Assembly (NCBI GenBank): GCA_024679065.1
Contig: JAGIQG010000004.1
Span: 31,558,001-31,622,000 of the forward strand
Length of the DNA: 64,000 bases
Direction of reading: 5' to 3'
Source: Sphyrna mokarran
Lineage: Eukaryota
The notes under the pieces were generated by a model. It was given only the letters and a program-made list of their open reading frames with translations, did no database searches and was not told where the DNA came from. A program made the position numbers and the translations under genes. Shown here piece by piece: positions 10,305 to 64,000 of the stretch; within the stretch, counting starts at the first letter, position 1; each line of letters opens with the position of its first letter.

Positions 10305-10975
10305 GGAGATGATCAACAGTGCAGTACACAGGTCACTGAAAGTGGCAACACAGGTGGAAAAGATAGTTAAGAAGGCATATGGCATGCTTGCCTTTATCAG
10401 TCAGGGCATTGAGTTTAAAAATTATCTAGTCATGTTACAGCTTTATAACACCTTGCTTAGGCCGCACTTGGAATATGGCGCTCAATTCTGGTTGCCACAT
10501 TACCAGAAGGATGTGGAAGATTTGGAGAGAGTACAGAAAAAATTCACCAGAACGTTGCCTGATATGCAGGACATTAGCTACAAGGAGAAGTTAGAGAAAC
10601 TTGATTTGTTCTCACTGGAACGACGGAGGTAGGAGGGCAACCTGATAGAAGTCTACAAGATTATGAAGGACATAGGCAGAGTGGATAGTCAGAGGCTTTT
10701 TTCCAAGGCGGAAGAGTCCACTTCTAGGGTTCATAGATTAAAGGTACAAGAGGCAAGGTTTAAAGGGGATGTGTTTGACACAGAGGGTGATGGCTGTCAA
10801 GAACTCGCTACCGGGAGAGATAGTGGAAGCGGGTATGGTATTGACTTTTAAGTGGCATCTTGTCAAATACATGAATAGGATGGAACAGAGAGCTATGGTC
10901 TCTGGAAGGGCAGCGGCTTTTAGTTCATAGTTGAAGGGCCTGTTCCTATGCTGTAATTTTCTTTGTTTTTTGAAG
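10305..10975 (+). mobile_element. CR1 LINE 3' fragment (ORF2 C-terminus, short 3' UTR)
   Basis: ORF 10240-10632 KVATQVEKIVKKAYGMLAFI..RPHLEY..LERVQKKFTR..FSLERRR; tail GAAGGGCCTGTTCCTATGCTGTAATTTTCTTTG. Confidence 0.9.
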
Positions 10976-26824: not shown

Positions 26825-27104
26825 ACAAATACATTGAATTCCATGGCAACCTGCTCCCAATCTTTGCAAAATGTACGTTGGAGGAATTTTTGCCCCCTGC
26901 AAACATTTTGAGTGGGATTCTACCTCGCTCTTCCTGAAACCTCAAAATCCCATCCAAGGTTAATGGACCTTCCCATTGTCCACCCCTCACCCACTCCGAT
27001 TATCGTAGTGAGTGGGACAGTAAAACTCTGGTGTGTGGGTAGGACTTTACGGCCTTGCTTGTCTCAAAATAGTAAAATCCCAAGGGAGGTCAACGGTGTT
27101 TTCC
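26825..27104. repeat. Diverged copy of 27555-27840 (unique flank plus 1.6 MITE units) inside CR1 ORF1
   Basis: Collinear match from TACATTGAAT.CCATGGCAA to GAGGTCAAC.GTGTTTTCC. Confidence 0.85.
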
Positions 27105-27641
27105 TGCACTACCTGCCGAGTTTTCTTGGACTGCCTGGCAGTCACCATTCTCTTTCTGCTTCCAGGCTCTAAGGCTGCGGTGTGACCACCTCTCTGAAGG
27201 CATTTCCCTCATAGCTCTCAGCTTCACGGATATGCTAAAATGACTCCAGCTGCAAAACCCAATATTTAGAAAAGAAAGGATTCCACTGGCTTATTTTTGC
27301 AGCTTTATCAACTTGTCTTCCCACTTTGAAAGGTTTGTGTATCTGAATATCTCAGTGTCTCTGTTCCTTGATTTCTTCTGTGATGTTACCATGCCTTTCA
27401 GGGATGTATTTACATCATTGTTCTTGTGAAGGATGTGTTAAACATCAACTCTGTTTACATGGTGCCAATCTGTCTGCTCCAGGCAGCCCACATACTGAGA
27501 ATGGAGAAGAACAATTGAATATTTCCCAGCACGAAAGCCAAGTAATGAGGACCAGAAAATGTACATTGAATACCATGGCAAGCTGCTCCCAATTTCTGCA
27601 AAATGTATGTTGGACGACTTCTTGCCCCCTGCAGACACATT

Positions 27642-27898
27642 GGGTGGGATTCTATGGCCTTGCACTTCCTGAAACTCCAAAATCCCACCCAAGGTCAATG
27701 GACCTTCCTATTGTCCACCCCTTGCCTACTCTGATTCCTGTAGCAGGTGGGGCAGTAAAATTGTGGTATGTGGGTGGGACTTTATGGCCTTGCTCATTTC
27801 AAAACCGTAAAATCCCGTCTGAGGTCAACTGTGTTTTCCATTGTCCGCCCCTTGCCAGCTACAATCCCCCAGGTCGGCAAGGCAGTAAAATTCCTGCC
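27642..27898. mobile_element. Head-to-tail MITE dimer
   Basis: Two units related to 602-721, separated by TGT; the dimer is flanked by ATT/ATT. Confidence 0.7.
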
Positions 27899-32989: not shown

Positions 32990-33470
32990 ATACATAAGTT
33001 CATAAGATATAGGAGCAAAATTAGGCCATTCAGCCTATCAAGTCTGCTCTGCCATTCAATCATGGCTGTTATGCTCAGCATCCCCCTTTTCCTATCTTCT
33101 CCCCATAACCCTTAAATACATTACCAATTAAAAATCTGCCTAACTCCTCCTTAAATTTACTCACTGTCCCAGCATCCACCACAGTTTGAGGTAGTAAATT
33201 CCACAAATTCACAACTCTTTGGAAGAACTAGTTTCTCCTCAATTCTTTTAAATTTGCTACTCCTTTTCCTAAGACTATGACTTCTCTCAAGAGGAAGCAC
33301 CCGCCTCACGCCTATCTTCTCCATACCTTTTATCATCTTATATACCTCAATCTGATGTCCCAAGATTCTTCTAAGTTTCAGAGCGTATAGGCCTAAACTG
33401 TTCAATCTCTCTTCATATGTCAAACCTCTCATTTCTGGAATCAATTGATGAATCTTCTCTGACCTTCCTC
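32990..33470 (-). mobile_element. CR1 LINE 3' fragment
   Basis: ORF 33157-33444 MIPEMRGLTYEERLNSLGLY..IEVYKMIKG; (CTTATGAA)-type tail. Confidence 0.85.
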
Positions 33471-33476
33471 CATTTA

Positions 33477-33777
33477 GGTAGCACAGCGGTTAGCACTGCT
33501 TCACAGCTCCAGGGACCTAGGTTTGATTCTTGGCTTGGGTCACTGTCTGTGTGGAGTTTACACATTCTCCTCATATCTGTGTGGGTTTCCTCTGAGTGCT
33601 CCACGTTTCCTCCCACACTCTAAAGATGTGCGGGTTAGGTTGATTGGCCATGTTAAAATTGCCCTTTAGTGTCCTGGGATGTGTAGGTTAGAGGGTAAAT
33701 GTGTAGGAATATGGCCTGTGTGGGATTGTGGTCAGTGCAGACGGGCCTATTTCCGCACTGTAGGGTCCTATGTTCTA
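33477..33777 (+). mobile_element. V-SINE type A
   Basis: Head, V-domain and CR1-like tail. Confidence 0.85.
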
Positions 33778-33784
33778 AAACTGT

Positions 33785-35030
33785 AGTATGGCTGAAATTG
33801 AAAGGAAAAATCTGCAGGGCAGTTGTGAGATCAGCCTTGTTATATAGTTTAGAAACCTGGGGAACAGTAAGAGGAGAGCAATAATGACTGGTATTCATAA
33901 AAAACTAGGTGACCAACAGGGGAGAAAATGAGAATTTCCTGTCCATTCTTTGGGTGTACTTACCTGAACGAATCTCCTGTGCTCTGTGATGCACAGTGCC
34001 TCAGAGAGATTCACGCTGTAAAATGGGCACAGAGCCTTGTCCAACCCGAGAAGCTGGTAGAATAGTGATGAGCAGTCTACTGCTCATGTGCCAATCTGTC
34101 CTTATCTGACCCCCCATGTCCCCTCCCATTGCCAGCCTCCCAATCACTGGCCCCCCGTTTATCCCCGAACACAGCCTGATTGCTGGGTGCCCCATCCCGA
34201 TTACTGGCCTTCCAACATCACCGCCCTGACCAGGGCCCTCCCCCCGCCACCGATCACTGGTTTACCGGACCTCTGTGAGGCAGCTCTGATCTTTCCCGGG
34301 GAGATGGCCAGCCCCAATCCATCTCTGTCCCCTATTCTGCCACTCCCTCCATGGCCAGTCCCGATCCCCTCCTCCCCTTCTCTGACCCACCGATCCTATT
34401 GCAGATTGGCAGCAGATCCCCACCCCACTACCGACCACTCCTCTCAATAAGCCCTATCTCTTTTGGCCCCACCCCATTGACAGTCCTGTGTGTAGTGCCT
34501 GATGGTCAGTGTCAGTGAGCCAGGCTGACAACTCCCTTGCTTCTGAGTTGATTACAGTGAAAAAAAGGGGCCTGGGAGACTTGCAATCAGCCAGATACTG
34601 ATCACAAATTCTGTTATAGTCCCCCCCTATCCTCCCCCTTGCCCCTGGCCAATGGCTAGATACTAATAAGATGTGGACACTGAGCTGGATGTGTGGAGTA
34701 ATGAGGAAGGACAAAATCAGGAATCAGCATGTCAGGGGATCAGTGAAGATGGACGCAGCATTGAAGGAAGTGAGATCAAAATAGCATCTGTTGTGGAGAG
34801 AGAGAGAGAGAGAGAGAAAGAAATGGAGGGAGGAGGGTGATAGAGATTGGATGGCCAGGAAGATGGAGAAGAAGAAGGTCTAAGGCCAGAAGTAGCGATG
34901 CAGCAGTGAGAGGTTTAAACAAAACGGAATTGGTAGATCAATGGATACTGACACAAGTACATAAGGAAGGGTGATCAACCGGCATTGCGTCTACCCTGTG
35001 TAAATCAGGGAAACCAATAAAAAGAAGTGC
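33785..35030 (+). mobile_element. RTE-clade LINE 3' fragment, split by a GC-rich insertion (~33900-34660)
   Basis: KLKGKICRAVVRSALLYSLETW, then LSWMCGVMRKDKIRNQHVRGSVK: RTE C-terminal motifs. Confidence 0.7.
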
Positions 35031-40927: not shown

Positions 40928-42933
40928 GGGCAAATTTTACTGGTTTACCCCACCCATCAATGGGCAGAGCAAACCGGTAAACTCATGCAAAAACTCATGG
41001 AAATCAGGATCATGTCCGATTTCTTGGCTTTCGCAATTGTAAGAGAACCGAATTTCTGGCAAGAGGCAGCAAGGTGGCACAGTGATTAGCACTGCTGCCT
41101 CACAGCTTCATGGGCTGGGGTTCAATTCTGACCTCGGGTCACTGTCTGGAGTGGAGTTTGTATATTCTCCTCATGCCTGCATGGGTTTCCTCCATGTGTT
41201 CAGGTTTTCCCTTACAGTTCAATGATGTGCAGGTTAGCTGGATTGTCCAAGCTGATTTGCCCCTTTAATGTTAGGGGAACTAGTAGAGTAAATATGTGGG
41301 GTTATGGGGATAGGGCCTGGGTGGAATTGTTGTCAATGTAAACTCAATGGTCTGAATGACCTCCTTCTGCACTGCAGGGATTCTATGAGTCAGCCGCCTG
41401 CCCATTTCTGGTGACAGTTTGAATATATTAAATTTATTCCAATATTCATTAACATGTGTTTAGTGAGCTTGGCACTCAATCATCTGGGCTCACTTTATGG
41501 ACTTTATGGTGTTATGGACTCGCTGGGAAAAGTTTCCTTCAGCGAAGAAAAGACCTGCTTCCCATGAATGGGGAACAGTCATTTTGCCCATGCTGGTAGA
41601 ACCAGAGATAATTCAGGCCTCACAGGGAGGCAGAGAGCAAAGGGAGGAGTAGTGAGGGAAATGCCAGCGTGGCCATGCCATTCTGGAACCTTGGCACTGC
41701 CAGACTGGCAGCTTGGCAATGTTCACTGAGCTGTGCCAAAGGACAGGGATGAAGAGGGTGAGCCCTGACTGTGCTGTGGGAATGGGGCCTGGAGAAGCAA
41801 GGCCTTAAGGTGGGGCCTTGCTTCTCCAGGCCCCATTGATCTCTGACAGAATGTACAGTGATCACCCCCCCCCCCCCCCCACCATTCCCTCCCTCCACCA
41901 ATCACAATGCACAGTAGCAGCACCCCCATCGATCATTAGCAAAATGCATAACGATCCTCCCTCACAGATCAGACTGCCCCAACTTGGCCTCACCCCCTCC
42001 AGATTCCCCGTAAGGGCCCTGCCTCCTCCAGGCCTCATTCCCATAGGTAACGCCCCTTCAGATCTCACCCTCTTCATCTCTGTCCCTTGGCACTGCCCAG
42101 TGAACATTACCAAGATGCCTTTCCTTTTATTCTTCCCCCACCTTCCTCTTCCATTCACTTAATCAAAGCATTTACCAAACTGGGTGAAAGGTCAGCAACC
42201 TGAGACATCAGGCTGGTCCTGAGGATTGGAGTTGGTGGGGCAGGGAAAGTATCAAGGAACCATATCAGGTCCGCTTCCTGATGCAATCCCATCCTGGCAA
42301 CTTTTCCCAGGGACAGGCTGAGAATTATTGGCTACCCAACCCAGAGTGGCAGACAACCAATTAGTTCAACTAATGCCCCAGTTAGGGTCCATTTTGTACT
42401 GTTACTAGTATTTACTGACATTGGAGTGGCCCCTTGCTATGTGCACAGGCTGCCAGCTCAATTGAGGTGGCCCTTTGGCACCAGGCCTGGGGTCCATTAC
42501 AGCTGGAAGCTCCATGTCCCAGTGGTGAAGCAATGGGGTTGAAACCAGTGAGAAAAGGCCTACAGATAGCTTCTCTCCCACTTTAAAGCTTTTACTGGTT
42601 TCAGGAGTCTTCTGTGAAGCCTTTCTGCACTGGTCAGCAAGGGCACCAATGTGGAGTATCTCCATCTTGTCACACCCTTGAAGCCCTTGACCTATCTCAG
42701 CAGTGAACAATATCCCTGGCAGAACTGCCAAACCTCCGAAGCTAAAACCCCTCTGGGCCTACAAAACAGGGAATCCACCTACCCTCCTAAATAGAATGGT
42801 GAATGTAGAGGTGGCCGATGAGGGGCTGTTACCTGAAAGATTGTTCCCTTTGTCTCATAGCTGGAAACTTTGAGCTCAGTACCTCATCTAACCCATAGCT
42901 CAGGGTCCTTAAAGCCACTAGAAAATTGAGCTC
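40928..42933. mobile_element. GC-rich Harbinger-type non-autonomous element(s), probably composite
   Basis: Starts GGGCAAATTTTAC and ends GAAAATTGAGCTC; interior has TGGCACTGCC motifs like the other elements; TSDs do not match. Confidence 0.4.
41064..41388 (+). mobile_element. V-SINE type A
   Basis: Head, V-domain and tail CCTCCTTCTGCACTGCAGGGATTCTATG. Confidence 0.85.
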
Positions 42934-44449: not shown

Positions 44450-45130
44450 TTCAAGAACAAAGAGAGCAAACAACAAAAAACAGTACAGTTCACGAAGAGG
44501 CCCTTCAGCCTTCCAAGCCTGTGCTGATCATGATGCCCTAACAAAATAAATCCTTCTGCTCTTGCTCAGTCTGTGCCCTTCTATTCCCTCCCTATTCATC
44601 CGGATGCCTCTTAAATGTTGTTAATGTGTCTGCTTCCAACACAGCCTTATTCTAAGGATCCACCACTCTCTATGTGAAAAGCTTCCCCGCACAAATCCCT
44701 AAAACATTCCCTCTTTCACCTTGAACCTGTACCCCTTGTAATTGACACTTCCACCCTTGGAAAAAGCCTTTGACTATCCATCCTGTCTCTGCCTCTCATA
44801 ATTTTGTAGACCTCTCCTGAGGTCTGCCCTCAGCCTCCGTCTTCCAAAGAAAACAATCCTCATTTATTCAACCTTTCCTCATAGTTGCCTTTGAGACTAG
44901 ACAACATCCTGATGAATCTTCTTTGCACTGCCTCCAAGGTTTCCATGTCCTTCAGGTAGTGTGATGACCAGAACTGCATGCAATACTCCAAATGTGGCCT
45001 AAGGTTTTATCTCACTGCAACATGATTTCCCAATCCTTGTACTCAGTGTACTCCTTGCTGATGAATGCAAGCATGCCCTACACTCTCTAAATCACCTTGG
45101 CCACCAGTGTTGCCACTTTTAGGGAACTGT
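44450..45130 (-). mobile_element. CR1 LINE 3' fragment
   Basis: Reverse complement of a 10305-10975-like sequence with an AACAAA-rich tail. Confidence 0.85.
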
Positions 45131-55579: not shown

Positions 55580-56540
55580 ATGGCCCAAATTGATTTAAGG
55601 AGCTGATTGGGCTATTTCTGCTCTGTGCTCCAACAGCTTGTGTGATTACGTAGCAACAATGACAGAAAAATTACTTCCTATTGTGTGTGTGGGTGTTTGT
55701 CTCTTTAAGACAATACAGTACAAGAGAGTCCCATGACTTGAGAAATAAATGGGAACTCAGAGTGAGTGATCACCTTATAGTGCGATGTCCTTTCTCGGTT
55801 AGAATCATCTAGCAACCTTAGTTTACATCCGAAGGAGTGGAGCATGACTCCAGGACAACCTAGGTCTCCTGTACCTAGTTTCTCTCATCAATACATTTCT
55901 TGTGTGGCTAATGAAACCTGAAATCTCTTGAAGAGTGTCACAACATAACACATTAACGATGAGGTGGCTCAATTGGATGACACAGCCTTCCTATGCGTAT
56001 CTGATTTAATTGAAGTTTGGAAAAGAGAGATACCCACCAGAGTGCTTGTTTTGGGTGACTAGATCAGAACACTTAGGGAGACTTGTCCAGTTAGTCCCAG
56101 ACCCTAAGGGGCAGATGAAGTAGCGAACCCAATGTGACCAGCGAGTCAAGAAGTTTGGGAAGATATAAGAAAAGCTTTAGACATTAGCCTTCAGGAGGAA
56201 GGAAAGTAAAACTTGAATAAAAGAACAAAAAGGGACAGGAGTTTTGGAAGTAAAGGGTGATATATCCAGCCAGAAGAAGACCGTATTTCAGATTTAAAAA
56301 AGGAGAAATCTGAAAAGAAGGCTGCAGTTAAACAAGCTTGTCCCAATAACAACAGAAAGCGAAAAGCTGAGAGTGCAGATTTTCCAATCTGAACAGAGTT
56401 TGCAAGGAATCATCCCTGTACTAAGGGCCTACAGGCAGTGAACATTGGCAGTTTTGGGAACAAAGGAAATCCTCTACTTGCTAAAAAAAACTGTTAAAAG
56501 AGATTACAGTCCTGAATGGACAGCTTAGACTGAGTGAAAT
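55580..56540 (+). mobile_element. LTR-like interspersed repeat (related to 15566-16623)
   Basis: Collinear diverged similarity to the minus-strand copy; host of the nested CR1 insertions. Confidence 0.45.
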
Positions 56541-56567
56541 TAACAAAAAGAACAAAGAACAAAAAAC

Positions 56568-57652
56568 ATTTCAGTAAGGCGTTTGACAAGGTTCCTCATG
56601 GTAGACTGATAGAGAAGGTGAAGGCGCATGGGATACAGGGTCGGGTATGTAGATGGGTCGAGAACTGGTTCGGGAGGAGGAGACAGAGGGTAGTAGTGGA
56701 AGGCTCTTTTTCCGACTGGAAGCCTGTCACTAGTGGAGTGCCACAAGGCTCAGTACTAGGTCCTCTTCTAATTGTGGTCTACATAAACGACTTGGAAGTT
56801 GGGGGTAGGTGGTGAGATCAGCAAATTTGCTGATGACACCAAGATGCTTGGATTGGCGGGTACAGAGGAGCAGTGTCAAGCAATACAACAGGACATAGAT
56901 AGGTTGGTAGACTGGGCAGATAGATGGCAAATGGAATTTAATCCGGATAAATGCGAGGTGATGCATTTTGGCCTGAAAAATGTAGAAGAGAGTTATAGGG
57001 TAAAAGGTAAAACTATACGGAGCATAGAGACGCAGAGAGACTTGGGGGTGCAGGTTCACAAGTCTCTGAAGGTGTCCTCACAGGTGGAGAAGGTGATAAA
57101 GAAGGCGTATAGTATGTTAGCTTTCGTAGAAAAGGGTATAGAATACAAGAGTAGGAGTTTGATGTTGCAATTGTATAGAACGTTGGTTAGGCCTCACTTG
57201 GAATACTGCGTCCAGTTCTGGTCGCCGTACTATCGGAAGGATGTGGAGTCCTTGGAGAGAGTGCAGAGGAGGTTTACAAGGATGCTGCCTGGTATGGAAG
57301 GACTGTCTTATGAGGAACGATTAAATAGACTGGGGTTGTTTTCCCTTGAAAGACGTCGGCTTAGAGGGGATCTCATAGAGGTGTATAAGATTATAAGGGG
57401 TATAGATAGCGTAAATGGAGGTAAACTTTTTCCACCTTTAGAAATGGATAGGACGAGGGGTCATGGCCATAGGGTGAGGGGGTCTATGTATAGGACGAAT
57501 ATTAGAGGGCAGTTTTTCACACAAAGGGTAGTGGGGGTGTGGAATGCACTGCCGAGTAAGGTGTGGGAGCAGGCACGCTGGGGCTGTTTAAGGGTCTCTT
57601 GGACAGCCACATGAGCAGTATGCAGATAGAGGGATATAGTAGGACTGTTTAA
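56568..57652 (+). pseudogene. CR1 ORF2 reverse transcriptase C-terminal half
   Basis: [47 protein letters not shown]; only two 1-nt indels (56801-56805, ~57563); restored stop TAA at 57650-57652. Confidence 0.9.
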
Positions 57653-57669
57653 CTACTGCTTTTTTTCCA

Positions 57670-57802
57670 CAGGTAATTCGGTCCATACTTGACCAACATT
57701 GAGCATGCATTCGGCAGGTGGTGCGAGTACGGCTCTTGGATGTTGATTCATGGGTTGCCTGGTACTTCATGTCGTAAATGAGTGCTTTATGTGGACCATC
57801 TG
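57670..57802 (+). ncRNA. Predicted long RNA hairpin in the CR1 3' UTR
   Basis: Nested complementary blocks, with compensatory changes relative to 63430-63563 (-); structure inferred by eye, expression unknown. Confidence 0.65.
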
Positions 57803-57805
57803 AAG

Positions 57806-57985
57806 GGCACCATGACAGCTCAGTGACTATCGCTGTAGCTGTGCAGACACTTGGAATTGGGTCGGTGTCTGTGGGAGTTGGCGCGTTCTCCCCGTGGTTG
57901 CATGGGTTTTCTCCGGGTGCTCCGGTTTCCTCCCACATCCCAAAAAATTCGCTCTTAGGCTGATTGGGAAACAAATTGTCCCTAT
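57806..57985 (+). other. Decayed SINE head plus V-domain embedded in the LINE 3' UTR
   Basis: GTCTGTGGGAGTTGGCGCGTTCTCCCCGTG..GGGTTTTCTCCGGGTGCTCCGGTTTCCTCCCACA matches the V-domain of the SINEs in this window. Confidence 0.85.
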
Positions 57986-58136
57986 GGTGAGAATTTTCCA
58001 TATTAGGAATAATATATATTATTATATAGGAATATTAAAATAGGATAATGGATTTGCTACTATATAGTATGACGGCGGCGCGGGCTCGTTGGGCCGAAGG
58101 GCCTGTTTCCCGTGCTGTGTTGTTAAAAAAAAAAAA

Positions 58137-58590
58137 TTACAGCAAGGAACAGGCCCTTCAGCCCTCCAAACCTGCACTGACTATGCTGTCCAACTGAACT
58201 AAAACTCCCTACCCTTTGGGGATCATATCCCTCCATTCCTATCTTATTAACATATTTGTCAAGAAGCACCTTAAAAGTCATGATCATATCTGCTTCCACT
58301 ACTCTCCTGGCAGCAAGTTCCAGGCATCCACCATCCTCTGTGTAAAAAACATCCCTCTATATCTCCTTTAAACTTGCCCATCGTACTTTAAACCTATGTC
58401 CCCTAGTAATTGACTCTTCCATTCTGGTAAAAAGTTTCTGACTATCCATTCTGTCCACGCCCTTTATAATCTTATAAACTTCTGTCTTGTTTCCCCACAA
58501 CCCCCATCATTCCAATGAGAGCAATCTAAGTTTCTCCAATCTCTAGCCAAGTTTCTCCAACCTCAAACCAAGGTTCTCCAACCGCTCTAA
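58137..58590 (-). mobile_element. Older CR1 3' fragment; its tail (56542-56567) is split off by the young CR1
   Basis: TTACAGCAAGGAACAGGCCCTTC continues AACAAAGAACAAAAAA, as in the reverse complement of 10935-10970. Confidence 0.8.
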
Positions 58591-60620: not shown

Positions 60621-63249
60621 CTCCCTCCATTGGAACCGTGCATGGTTGAAGTTTTCGAGAAGAAATATTATGTTAAATGCGAGCTCCAAGATCCTTCCAC
60701 TAAACGATTGCTTGTGTTGATTTACAAACTAGTGCATAAAATGTTCATTTGGAATGTGTGTTGAATAAATTGATGTTGAAGATTGTATAAGAAAGCTAAA
60801 GGTCGGGGGTGGGGGGGTTGGTGGAATGACATGTATGCGGTGCCTGTTTCTTTTACTCTGCAGTAGAAGTGGGTCACCTGACTTGAGGAGCTAATAGGAA
60901 CTGATAATGGGTGGTCATTCCACAAGGTGAAATCCTTTCTCAGTTTGAGTCATCTAGCATCCGCGTGGTGGGTATCATAAAGACTGCAGCATGACTCCAG
61001 GTTAGCCTAGAGTTGCAATGCCTGTACCTCGTTTTCCTGACCAATAATATCTTGCGTTCCCACTGAAGCCTAAAATCTCTTGACAATGGGAGAGTGCCCA
61101 CGACATAACACCTTCCATCTCTCTGTACCCTGTGACAACCATTACTAATGTGATTACTTGTAGACATTGATGAAGATTTTGATTCCTTGTTTTGAAACTG
61201 GAAACAGCAATAGCCCTTTACTGAGAGTGCATTGCAATTGCCCACCCACTAATTGGCCAGCTCCCACTCAGAGCTATTACTAATGCCTGGTGCTCATCCA
61301 CTTAATGTAGATCAGGTTGCATATTGGAATAAAGGTGGATTCCGTGCACTAATTGTTGGAGAGGCACCAACCAAATTTGTCTGACATGCCTATTAGAATG
61401 GCCCTAGAAAAATATTGAGCTGTTGAGTCAAACCACACATTGGGCTGAATGTTTACTGAGTCTGGATGACTCAGTAGCCTTTTAAAAATGGTGGGTGGTT
61501 CCTGATTGTAGACTGATTTCTGAGTTACTGTTGAAGGGAGTGGGCTTGTTCCTGTCAAAAACTCACATCTAGCAGTCAAGACCAAGCCAGCTCTGTTATG
61601 GAGATAGAAATATCCTACTCCTCTGCAAATTCAGTGGAGGTGGGCCAGGTATTTAAAGAATTGTATTTCATGCCACCTCAGAAGGCCAAAGAGTGTGAAA
61701 AGGGGGCTTTTACAAAGATGTGTTTTAAATGCCCTTCTCATGACCTCTGTGCCAAAGTAAGTCTCTCTACCTACCTCCCATAACCTTTCATGCCTTCTCT
61801 GCTGGTATATGCACCTCAGTCATCCCCCATAGCATCTCACGTCCCATATTGCAAACTATGGTATTTCCATGCCTCTATATCACTATATAGAAGAAACTAT
61901 TATATTCTATAATGTGAAGAAAAAGCTCTAAAGAAAAATTCATACATTCATTACTTTTACTATGTTAAAAAAGTAATTTCACTACAAGGCAATAATAGTG
62001 TCAATAATCCAAACTCCTTAAAGTATTAATAACCAAAACCACAAGCTCCCGAAACAATTTAACCTTGTGTAAATAAACATTGTGAAATTGACAGCATACA
62101 TTAGAGAGCAGAAGCTGATGATCAAGCATCATTTAACCTGGGATGCAGATGTTTCAACAAAAATAATGGATGCCATGAGATTTTGCTAAGAGTCCAGACA
62201 TCTATTTGTTGAGACACCTATATAACAAATGGACATGAAAGTATGATATCATGGCATAGGGGCATGAATTCCACAGGGAATAGGTGGACTGTCATAGCTT
62301 AGTATGGGACATGAGAGATTATGGGAGTCAGTGGGAGGCATACTCCGGAATTGAGGCATGGATGGGGCCTGGGGAGCATGTTAGAGGAGACGGGCTACAG
62401 GGGTGTGAGTAGAAGGGTCTTTGTGCGTTAATTGAAATTGGAACAAAGTTGCACAGCACTGGGGTAGATCTTTGAAACAGCCTGCCTTGACTGCTGGCAG
62501 CCCCTGTGGTTACCTCTGCACATCTTCATGGGTTGGCTGTCCCAGCTCCATCCTTTATCCCCTGAAATGAAGAGCCCATTCTTACAAGTGCTTTCTACCG
62601 AGGTGGGCAGGCTGAGTAAAAATGTTCCTGCGTCCCCTACCCACCTTTAAAATATCAATAATGGAAACAGCAAGTCCTTGAAACACTTAACCTTGTATGA
62701 ACAAACATTGTGAAATTGACAGCAAAGATTAGAGGGTCTGAGCTGTCAATAATATAACATTTTCTTTGGGGTACAACTGGTTTGACCATAGTAATGGATA
62801 ACTGAACTCTCAGCCAGGTATACATAATGAAGCTTGGCTGAGACTCTAGATTGCCTTTGGATATAAAACACAATCCATTAACAAGTATTAACAGTTTTGA
62901 GATTGAAATACTTTGATTGTATTTTGTTTTTCTAATAATTCTGCCATAATTTGGTGAAAAGTTAATTTGTTCAATTTATATGGTGAACCATTGCAATAAG
63001 CAGTGGTGTGATCAGGTCATAGAAACCTTTCAACATGATTTCTAGAGACACACCTTTAGATTTCTTCTGAGCTTACTACCACACACTAAATATAGGGAGT
63101 TCACAACAAAGAACAAAGAACAAAACAGCATGGGAAACAGGCCCTTCGGCCCAACAAGCCCGCACCGCCACCTCAATGTTCCCACTTCTACATGCGATCC
63201 CTGTCCATGTTTATAGATCTATGGATTAAAAACCAAATTTGAGACAATT

Positions 63250-63425
63250 TAGGGAGAATTTGTTTTGCCAATTAGCCTAAGAGCACATCTTTGGGATGTG
63301 GGAGGAACCGGAGCTCCCGGAGAAAACCCACGCAAGCACGGGGAGAATGCGCAAACTCCCACAGACACAGGCCCAAATCCATGTATCTGCACAGCACAGC
63401 GATAGTCACTGAGCTGTCGTGTTGC
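63250..63425 (-). other. Decayed SINE head plus V-domain embedded in the LINE 3' UTR
   Basis: Minus strand GTCTGTGGGAGTTTGCGCATTCTCCCCGTGCTTGCGTGGGTTTTCTCCGGGAGCTCCGG. Confidence 0.85.
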
Positions 63426-63429
63426 ACAT

Positions 63430-63563
63430 CAGATGGTCCAGGTCAAGCATACACTAACGATGTGAAGCAGTAGGATACTCTCGAAGAAGATCCAAGAGCA
63501 GTCCTCTCACGACCCATCGCGTGTATGCCCCTCATTAGACAACAAGGTGGACCAAAGCACCTG
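63430..63563 (-). ncRNA. Predicted long RNA hairpin in the CR1 3' UTR
   Basis: TGGTCCA/TGGACCA, GGGCATACAC/GTGTATGCTT, GCGATG/CATCGT, AGGA/TCCT and GCTCTTGGA/TTCGAGAGT nested pairings. Confidence 0.7.
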
Positions 63564-64000
63564 TAGGATAAAAACAAGTACATCATCTATTTACACACTT
63601 CCCAGGGACTCCCAAGGCTCATGATCCCTATTTTAAATCAGTTTTCTATAACCCTCCATTCCCATTCTGTTCATGTGCCCATCTAAGTATTTCTTAAATA
63701 ACTCCAGAGTACCTGCCTCCACCACTTTACTTGGCAGCGCATTCCATACCCCACCACCCTCTGTGTGAAAAAACTCCCTCTAGCATCCAAATTATACCTT
63801 ACCCCCCCTCACCCTAAGCCCGTGACCCCTCGTGCTATTTGAGTCCATCCCAGGAAAAAGCTTAGCCCTGTTTACTCTATCTATCCCCTTCAAAATCTTG
63901 TACACCTCTATCAGATCTCCTCTAAGTCTACGTCTTTCTAAGGAAAACAGTCCCAATTTGCCTAATCTCTCCTCGTAACTCAGATCTTCCATACCAGGCA

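Follow-up and report, generated by a model that had tools for sequence, protein, structure and literature searches.

The closest precedent for the arrangement described here is the MER6/MER6A MITE, in which a headless V-SINE fragment has spread within another transposable element (Luchetti et al. 2019, PMC6887750). MER6 is there described as a DNA transposon, non-autonomous and mobile without an RNA step, with copies that decay at about the neutral rate (PMC6887750). Sharks and rays have a V-SINE, HE1, that is partnered with the CR1 element HER1 (PMC3747384, accessible part), and stringent LINEs recognise the stem-loop of their own tail (excerpt of PMC4176376). V-domains are known in the SINEs of cnidarians, molluscs and arthropods (parts of PMC4824008 and PMC4758252). 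A paper of 2016 stated that no LINE had been found to carry a SINE central domain. The reason for the conservation of these domains across animal phyla was presented there as unsettled, with three hypotheses and proof for none of them; one was discounted because such a domain was not known from LINEs (PMC5804259).

We have analysed a 64-kb stretch of DNA, hereafter the window, that contains two copies of a CR1 LINE (copies a and b) with a V-domain between ORF2 and the tail. HE1 has the same order of tRNA-type head, V-domain and CR1-type tail, but in copies a and b the head and V-domain lie inside a LINE, downstream of ORF2 and a hairpin domain, and lack a B box. Whereas the carrier of the MER6 fragment is non-autonomous, that of copies a and b is an autonomous retroelement, and its domain changes more slowly than the carrier coding sequence. 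BovB elements reportedly incorporate SINEs at their ends (work of Walsh and colleagues, 2013). BovB is likewise a LINE lineage bearing SINE-derived sequence, but the SINE pieces are reportedly lineage-specific, and no constraint or deeply conserved domain is known to have been reported for them.

The architecture is undescribed in the titles and abstracts of the literature found, and may have been annotated before. It is not mentioned in the accessible parts of PMC5786205, PMC3747384, PMC1513397, PMC11481361, PMC5499810 and PMC6036668, nor in that of a 2026 bioRxiv survey of CR1 elements (10.64898/2026.01.13.699120), the supplements of which may hold a consensus of the family.

RESULTS

Two CR1 copies with a long, ordered 3' UTR

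Copy a (56568-58136, +) is 5'-truncated at 56568, and copy b (63103-64000, -) is cut by the window edge. Collinearity runs from ORF2 through the tail, with 905 nt alignable at 70% identity, and the flanks of the two copies are unrelated. The stop codon of ORF2 occupies 57650-57652 (copy a) and 63635-63633 (copy b). It is followed in each by a 3' UTR of ~470-530 nt with an identical order of parts, as the initial annotation had reported and the collinear alignment bears out. A pyrimidine tract with CAG/G is followed by a hairpin domain, a head-like segment of 60 nt, the V-domain with the post-V segment of the SINE body, a spacer and the CR1 terminal stem-loop. Copy b has 52 additional nt separating the stop from the acceptor-like site. 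The features are as follows.

56568..57652 (+), copy a: ORF2 (C-half of RT and C-terminal domain; RVT_1), with two 1-nt frameshifts at ~56795 and ~57564
57653..57674 (+), copy a: pyrimidine tract and CAG/G, acceptor-like by pattern, AG ending at 57672
57670..57803 (+), copy a: hairpin domain, a stem GGUCCA/UGGACC and a long imperfect hairpin at ~57701-57787, from folding, with pairs kept in copy b
57812..57872 (+), copy a: head-like segment with A-box-like CAGCTCAGTGA at 57816-57826, no B box, and two hairpins
57873..57986 (+), copy a: V-domain core (57873-57955) and next segment of the SINE body, from similarity to window SINEs
57987..58073 (+), copy a: AT-rich spacer that does not align with copy b
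58074..58136 (+), copy a: CR1 terminal stem-loop (inner hairpin GGGCC-GAAG-GGCCT) and A run common with the target site
63633..64000 (-), copy b: C-terminus of ORF2, exiting the window, with two 1-nt frameshifts and stop at 63635-63633
63430..63580 (-), copy b: acceptor-like site (AG ending at 63561) and hairpin domain
63250..63426 (-), copy b: head-like segment (A-box-like at 63416-63406), V-domain and post-V segment
63103..63249 (-), copy b: spacer, CR1 terminal stem-loop and TTCTTTG repeat (63105-63124)
10305-10975, 44450-45130, 58137-58590, ~19750, ~33000, ~35830, ~36730 and ~54020: short-UTR CR1 3' ends

The module is joined to ORF2 in both instances (2/2), and neither a third copy nor a stand-alone module occurs in the 64-kb window. 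Searches of protein databases and of bacterial and archaeal genomes yielded no further copy. Of the other CR1 3' ends in the window, eight have a tail; their UTRs are short, and the module is absent from all of them (0/8), in agreement with the initial annotation. A ninth other CR1 fragment has no tail. Since these short-UTR ends have spread without it, the module is dispensable for CR1s in general. Ordinary short-UTR chondrichthyan CR1s share with copies a and b an ORF2 with RT and C-terminal domain, 5' truncation, a stem-loop and a short repeat tail. They lack the four conserved structured blocks of the 3' UTR, which is roughly 60-130 nt in the other CR1s of the window.

Copy a interrupts the tail of a short-UTR CR1 that is older and runs in the opposite direction (56547-56567; 58137-58590, -), with the stem-loop of the older element to its right and a TTCTTTG-type repeat to its left. 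The A run that flanks copy a on both sides is likely a target duplication. One-nucleotide indels in the two copies (~56795, ~57564, ~63800, ~63750, ~63394, ~63305 and ~63290) fall mostly within G-, T- or A-rich runs, and contrast with near-zero substitution at constrained residues. Part of these indels may be errors of assembly; if so, a and b may be more intact than they read.

The carrier is a CR1 lineage

The ORF2 of copy a contains the RT domain RVT_1, and the top matches are to chondrichthyan, turtle and bird CR1-type ORF2. Its closest named relatives are CR1 proteins of Stegostoma and Chiloscyllium (62-65% identity). Database protein fragments are 74-89% identical to it, and there are additional open-frame ORF2 relatives that are ~84% identical, so the lineage has several members. 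By the features examined the carrier is a CR1 LINE and not a V-SINE. In a protein tree of 40 rows, copies a and b and four open-frame relatives among these database fragments form one clade (97/95) that is nested among chondrichthyan CR1s and separate from the short-UTR copies of the window. A DNA tree of 10 ORF2-end fragments from the window left a and b unresolved.

Between the ORF2 of copies a and b we find dS = 0.87, dN = 0.17 and dN/dS of about 0.2 (65 codons), consistent with the many synonymous differences noted initially. Identical sites number 72/106 at third codon positions, 17/27 at four-fold sites and 166/212 at codon positions 1+2. Near-invariant residues of ORF2 are changed at 1/69 and 0/30 positions in the two copies, and CpG observed/expected is 0.54-0.62 in a and b against 0.24 in the window. 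A dN/dS of about 0.2 in near-intact young copies means that the differences arose between active subfamilies; a and b are separate subfamilies that diverged while active. The same ratio, together with the unrelated flanks, rules out segmental duplication or misassembly. The window has two insertions, in unrelated flanks, and the database relatives are known by their ORF2. The shared 3' UTR module is very probably a feature of one CR1 lineage at the family level, as had been claimed.

The end of ORF2 (57620-57652 and 63633-63660, as well as P0007, P0098, P0156 and P0158) has four residues past a terminal GY. It is shorter in the a/b clade than in several sister CR1s, and serves as a lineage marker.

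A V-domain of SINE origin

We take the conserved block to be the V-domain, the name used for it in the initial annotation. A profile built from a and b matches 16 SINE copies in the window (E = 2e-16 to 4e-7), which agrees with the SINE origin first proposed. The V-domains of a and b have 82-84% identity to the majority of these 16 copies (67/82 identical sites for copy a), and on either side the homology continues into the flanking SINE sequence. On these sequence comparisons the homology of the V-domain to SINEs is firm. With 126 aa from the antisense frame as query, phmmer found 35 matches, of which 34 are the antisense frame of ordinary V-SINEs and one is a repeat protein; none (0/35) reaches into the hairpin domain. 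The window SINEs are presumably of HE1 type.

In the V tree a and b are joined at 93/85 (unstarred). Compared with the majority sequence of the 16 window SINEs, both carry the same 20 differences in the head, nine in the V-domain and six in the post-V segment. The likeness of a and b was therefore inherited within the LINE, and these shared derived changes rule out conversion from the window SINEs.

Five of the window SINEs (2020, 5720, 18580, 23470 and 55000) form a group in the V tree (95/93) and are without a CR1-type stem-loop tail. There are thus at least two V-SINE subfamilies with differing tails in the window, these five and the other 11.

The initial annotation had also seen a tRNA head upstream of the V-domain. 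The loss of the B box stands: no B box is found within two mismatches in a or b, compared with 13/16 window SINE copies, and ~18 nt are missing at its position. The homology of the head is less clear. The A-box-like block has two mismatches, and ARAGORN found no tRNA. The local profile score against the SINE head is equalled by 65/400 shuffles for copy a and 12/400 for copy b, and the 3'-anchored score by 16-41 of 300. In an ungapped comparison the A-box block of copy a matches in register at 20/34 positions (2/1000 shuffles; 53/1000 for copy b). By sequence, the homology of this segment to the SINE tRNA head appears marginal, except for the A-box block of copy a.

Head and V-domain change slowly and keep most predicted pairs

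Identical sites between a and b number 51/56 in the head, 73/81 in the V core and 26/31 in the post-V segment. Head and V together are identical at 124/137 sites (13 differences, JC 0.10), within a contiguous conserved run at 57791-57986. Their conservation exceeds that of four-fold sites (P = 0.0008) and also that of ORF2 codon positions 1+2 (P = 0.003); the spacer is identical at 33/78 sites. Head and V have diverged far less than synonymous sites (JC 0.10 against a dS of 0.87). From these two copies, selection on head and V is likely.

The head segment is predicted to fold into two hairpins, and together with the 5' part of V into a multi-stem domain. Predicted pairs of head and V are kept at 46/48 in one direction (P = 0.001) and 43/46 in the other (P = 0.078); for the head alone P = 0.02-0.03. 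The head folds with z = -3.2, compared with -1.7 to +0.3 in eight SINE copies, which are decayed. In the 3' half of V, sequence is conserved but folding is ordinary (z = +0.3 and -0.8).

The hairpin domain conserves structure, not sequence

The hairpin domain is identical at 94/140 sites (JC 0.43) and shows no excess of sequence conservation over third codon positions (P = 1.0). The long hairpin is identical at 60/89 sites and the GGACCATCTGA block at 12/13. Despite 44 substitutions, 39/46 pairs in the predicted fold of either copy can still form in its counterpart. Placing the same 44 substitutions at random gave expectations of 29.5 and 30.9 (P = 0.00015 and 0.0009), and there are five compensatory pairs in each direction (P = 0.04 and 0.02). 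Folding is specific to the sense strand, with z = -2.4 to -2.5 against +0.1 antisense in copy a and -3.5 against -1.4 in copy b. A control stretch at the ORF2 end of copy a has z = -2.75, matching the hairpin, and z by itself is weak evidence.

The acceptor-like site is a sequence pattern only. The region is identical at 14/21 sites between a and b. That of copy a is one of three sites in the window with at least 11/12 pyrimidines (both strands, 128 kb), and that of copy b, with 10/12, is one of 27 with at least 10/12 (both strands). CAGGU is paired in both predicted folds, in copy a with AUCUG at 57798-57802. Both copies have a lineage-typical PSKV motif with AGT-AAR-GT codons (57553-57562, +, in a; ~63733 in b). 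These give a weak donor-like GTAARG 115-170 nt 5' of the acceptor-like site, and an intron between the two is possible but unconvincing.

A profile of the acceptor and hairpin matches only a and b in the window. Rfam gave no match at gathering score over the whole window (local best E = 1.3 and 7.2), and the highest-scoring miRNA model reached 13.6 bits, where the cut-off is 54. Assignments as hammerhead, HDV-like, SECIS or C/D-box RNA were dropped because core elements are missing, as judged by eye against the motifs. A coding role of the module was rejected since reading frames differ between a and b, and a protein word search found no homologues of its 148-aa antisense and 61-aa sense frames. 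An exact 22-nt motif of the module is absent from bacterial and archaeal genomes, as expected. The extra 52 nt of copy b were considered as a remnant of an old short UTR. The similarity to eight other UTRs was not significant (best 230/2000 shuffles), and the 52 nt were therefore not used for polarity.

A saturated spacer and a LINE-type tail

The local alignment score of the two spacers is no better than that of shuffles (1274/2000). The spacer of copy a is AT-rich (22% GC) as initially described, but that of copy b is not (39% GC). The conserved blocks of the 3' UTR are thus kept apart by a saturated spacer, beyond which the tail is identical at 47/51 sites. Both copies have the terminal stem-loop. 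A 7-nt repeat is present 2.9 times in copy b, and copy a ends in the A run common with the target site. The tail is of LINE type, with the GAAGGGCC loop, and in copy b the TTCTTTG repeat. It resembles the other LINE tails in the window and not those of nine aligned SINE copies, being of another CR1 type than the SINE tails. It is therefore most likely that a SINE head-plus-body was inserted 5' of the tail that the LINE already had, and less likely that a complete SINE was appended.

DISCUSSION

Proposed capture of a V-SINE part and its retention as a cis-acting RNA

V-domains occur in SINEs across phyla and are far older than the a/b clade, which makes the LINE the recipient; transfer from SINE to LINE is very probable. 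Capture of a SINE by the LINE, as put forward initially, is supported by the SINE origin of V, the missing B box and the slow divergence of head and V relative to synonymous sites, while the remnant of a tRNA head is weaker than was thought. We suggest that an ancestral autonomous chondrichthyan CR1 acquired a V-SINE head-plus-body downstream of its ORF2 stop and upstream of the 3' tail it already had, perhaps by a template switch or by insertion into a master copy, and that the captured part landed beside the hairpin domain. Loss of the B box would have removed the internal Pol III promoter. Such a loss might be expected, because head, V and LINE tail with that promoter would make a ready-made competing SINE. 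The head remnant would have refolded into the multi-stem structure, and purifying selection could then have maintained the module as a structured RNA element that acts in cis on the LINE transcript. It would most likely act post-transcriptionally through a bound host factor, which may stabilise the RNA or hold it within the ribonucleoprotein on the way to target-primed reverse transcription. Recognition by ORF2p would fall to the terminal stem-loop, as it does in stringent LINEs. Retention of a captured V-SINE part as a structured cis RNA element is on balance the best explanation overall, and we somewhat favor a benefit to the LINE at the RNA level.

It is rather unlikely that head and V are a functionless SINE passenger, recently exchanged between the subfamilies, with the low divergence marking a young shared tract. 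The conserved run is indeed contiguous, conserved domains have been proposed as hotspots of module exchange (PMC5804259, available part), and two sequences cannot separate exchange from selection. Yet the tail is equally conserved beyond the saturated spacer and would need a second tract. Moreover, substitutions avoid paired positions (P = 0.001, 0.078 in reverse, and 0.02-0.03 for the head alone), and the head has been remodelled into stems not present in the SINE copies (the z of -3.2 noted above, set against eight decayed copies). Splicing offers a distinctly unlikely reading, in which the module is a 3' exon with its donor in the 5' part of the LINE or in a host exon, giving a short or chimeric regulatory or non-autonomous RNA. 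Both copies do have the rare acceptor pattern just past the stop (three and 27 sites per 128 kb of strand), kept even though the adjoining 52 nt differ. But the pairing of CAGGU in both folds explains this conservation and would hide the site. The window sequence has no strong conserved donor, the 5' part of the element lying outside it, and no stand-alone module, and in copy a the frames past the acceptor close within a few codons.

The ~40-bp imperfect hairpin, conserved in structure and free in sequence, might suggest a Drosha/Dicer small-RNA precursor by which the element tunes its own silencing, with V as target or partner, and V-SINE-linked miRNAs are cited in the accessible text of PMC5499810. 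This is quite improbable given the 60/89 identity, with no conserved arm of seed length except a 10-nt block, and a top Rfam miRNA score far below cut-off; cleavage would also part ORF2 from the tail. A DNA-level enhancer or chromatin element of the LINE would fit the conservation of head and V in sequence besides structure, and other SINE domains have enhancer activity (PMC4824008, in part). However, compensatory changes and strand-specific folding indicate RNA, and head and V are kilobases away from the 5' promoter, making such a role very improbable. The reverse transfer, with the LINE lineage as donor of the V-domain to SINEs, was raised in the initial annotation, and SINE bodies can come from LINEs (excerpt of PMC5786205). 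It founders on the presence of V in cnidarian, mollusc and arthropod SINEs, the nesting of the a/b clade among chondrichthyan CR1s, the absence of V from the eight other CR1 3' ends of the window and the A-box-like block standing 5' of V. LINE-derived SINE bodies have reportedly been shown for RTE/Vingi-type 5' parts, and we consider a LINE donor extremely improbable here.

A V-domain under constraint in an autonomous LINE would remove the premise that such domains are absent from LINEs. It would argue for a benefit to the mobile RNA itself, and not to the host or to Pol III transcription, and would make the function of the domain testable in cis. We put forward tentatively, and with some doubt, that the V-domain could be a portable enhancer of retrotransposition at the RNA level that works without Pol III, taken from a parasite and kept across subfamilies with new structured RNA. 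If true, it would be the first case in which selection within a LINE is shown for a deeply conserved SINE domain, and the persistence of such domains in SINEs across animal phyla would be explained.

Other sequences in the window

A 5'-truncated CR1 (33180-33456, -) and a V-SINE (33476-33790, +) lie back to back 20 nt apart. They are in opposite orientation, an architecture unlike that of a and b. A direct repeat of about 278 nt (26830-27104 and 27562-27839) has 83% identity between its units, 730 nt apart. Repeat pairs assigned to neither CR1 nor V-SINE are found at 41707-41804 and 42015-42119, 55716-55954 and 60861-61114, and 62018-62106 and 62647-62734, comprising one inverted and two dispersed pairs. 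At 56261-56392 (+) there is a lysine-rich frame of 43 aa without a Pfam match, with its stop 175 nt 5' of copy a, which looks like a last coding exon.
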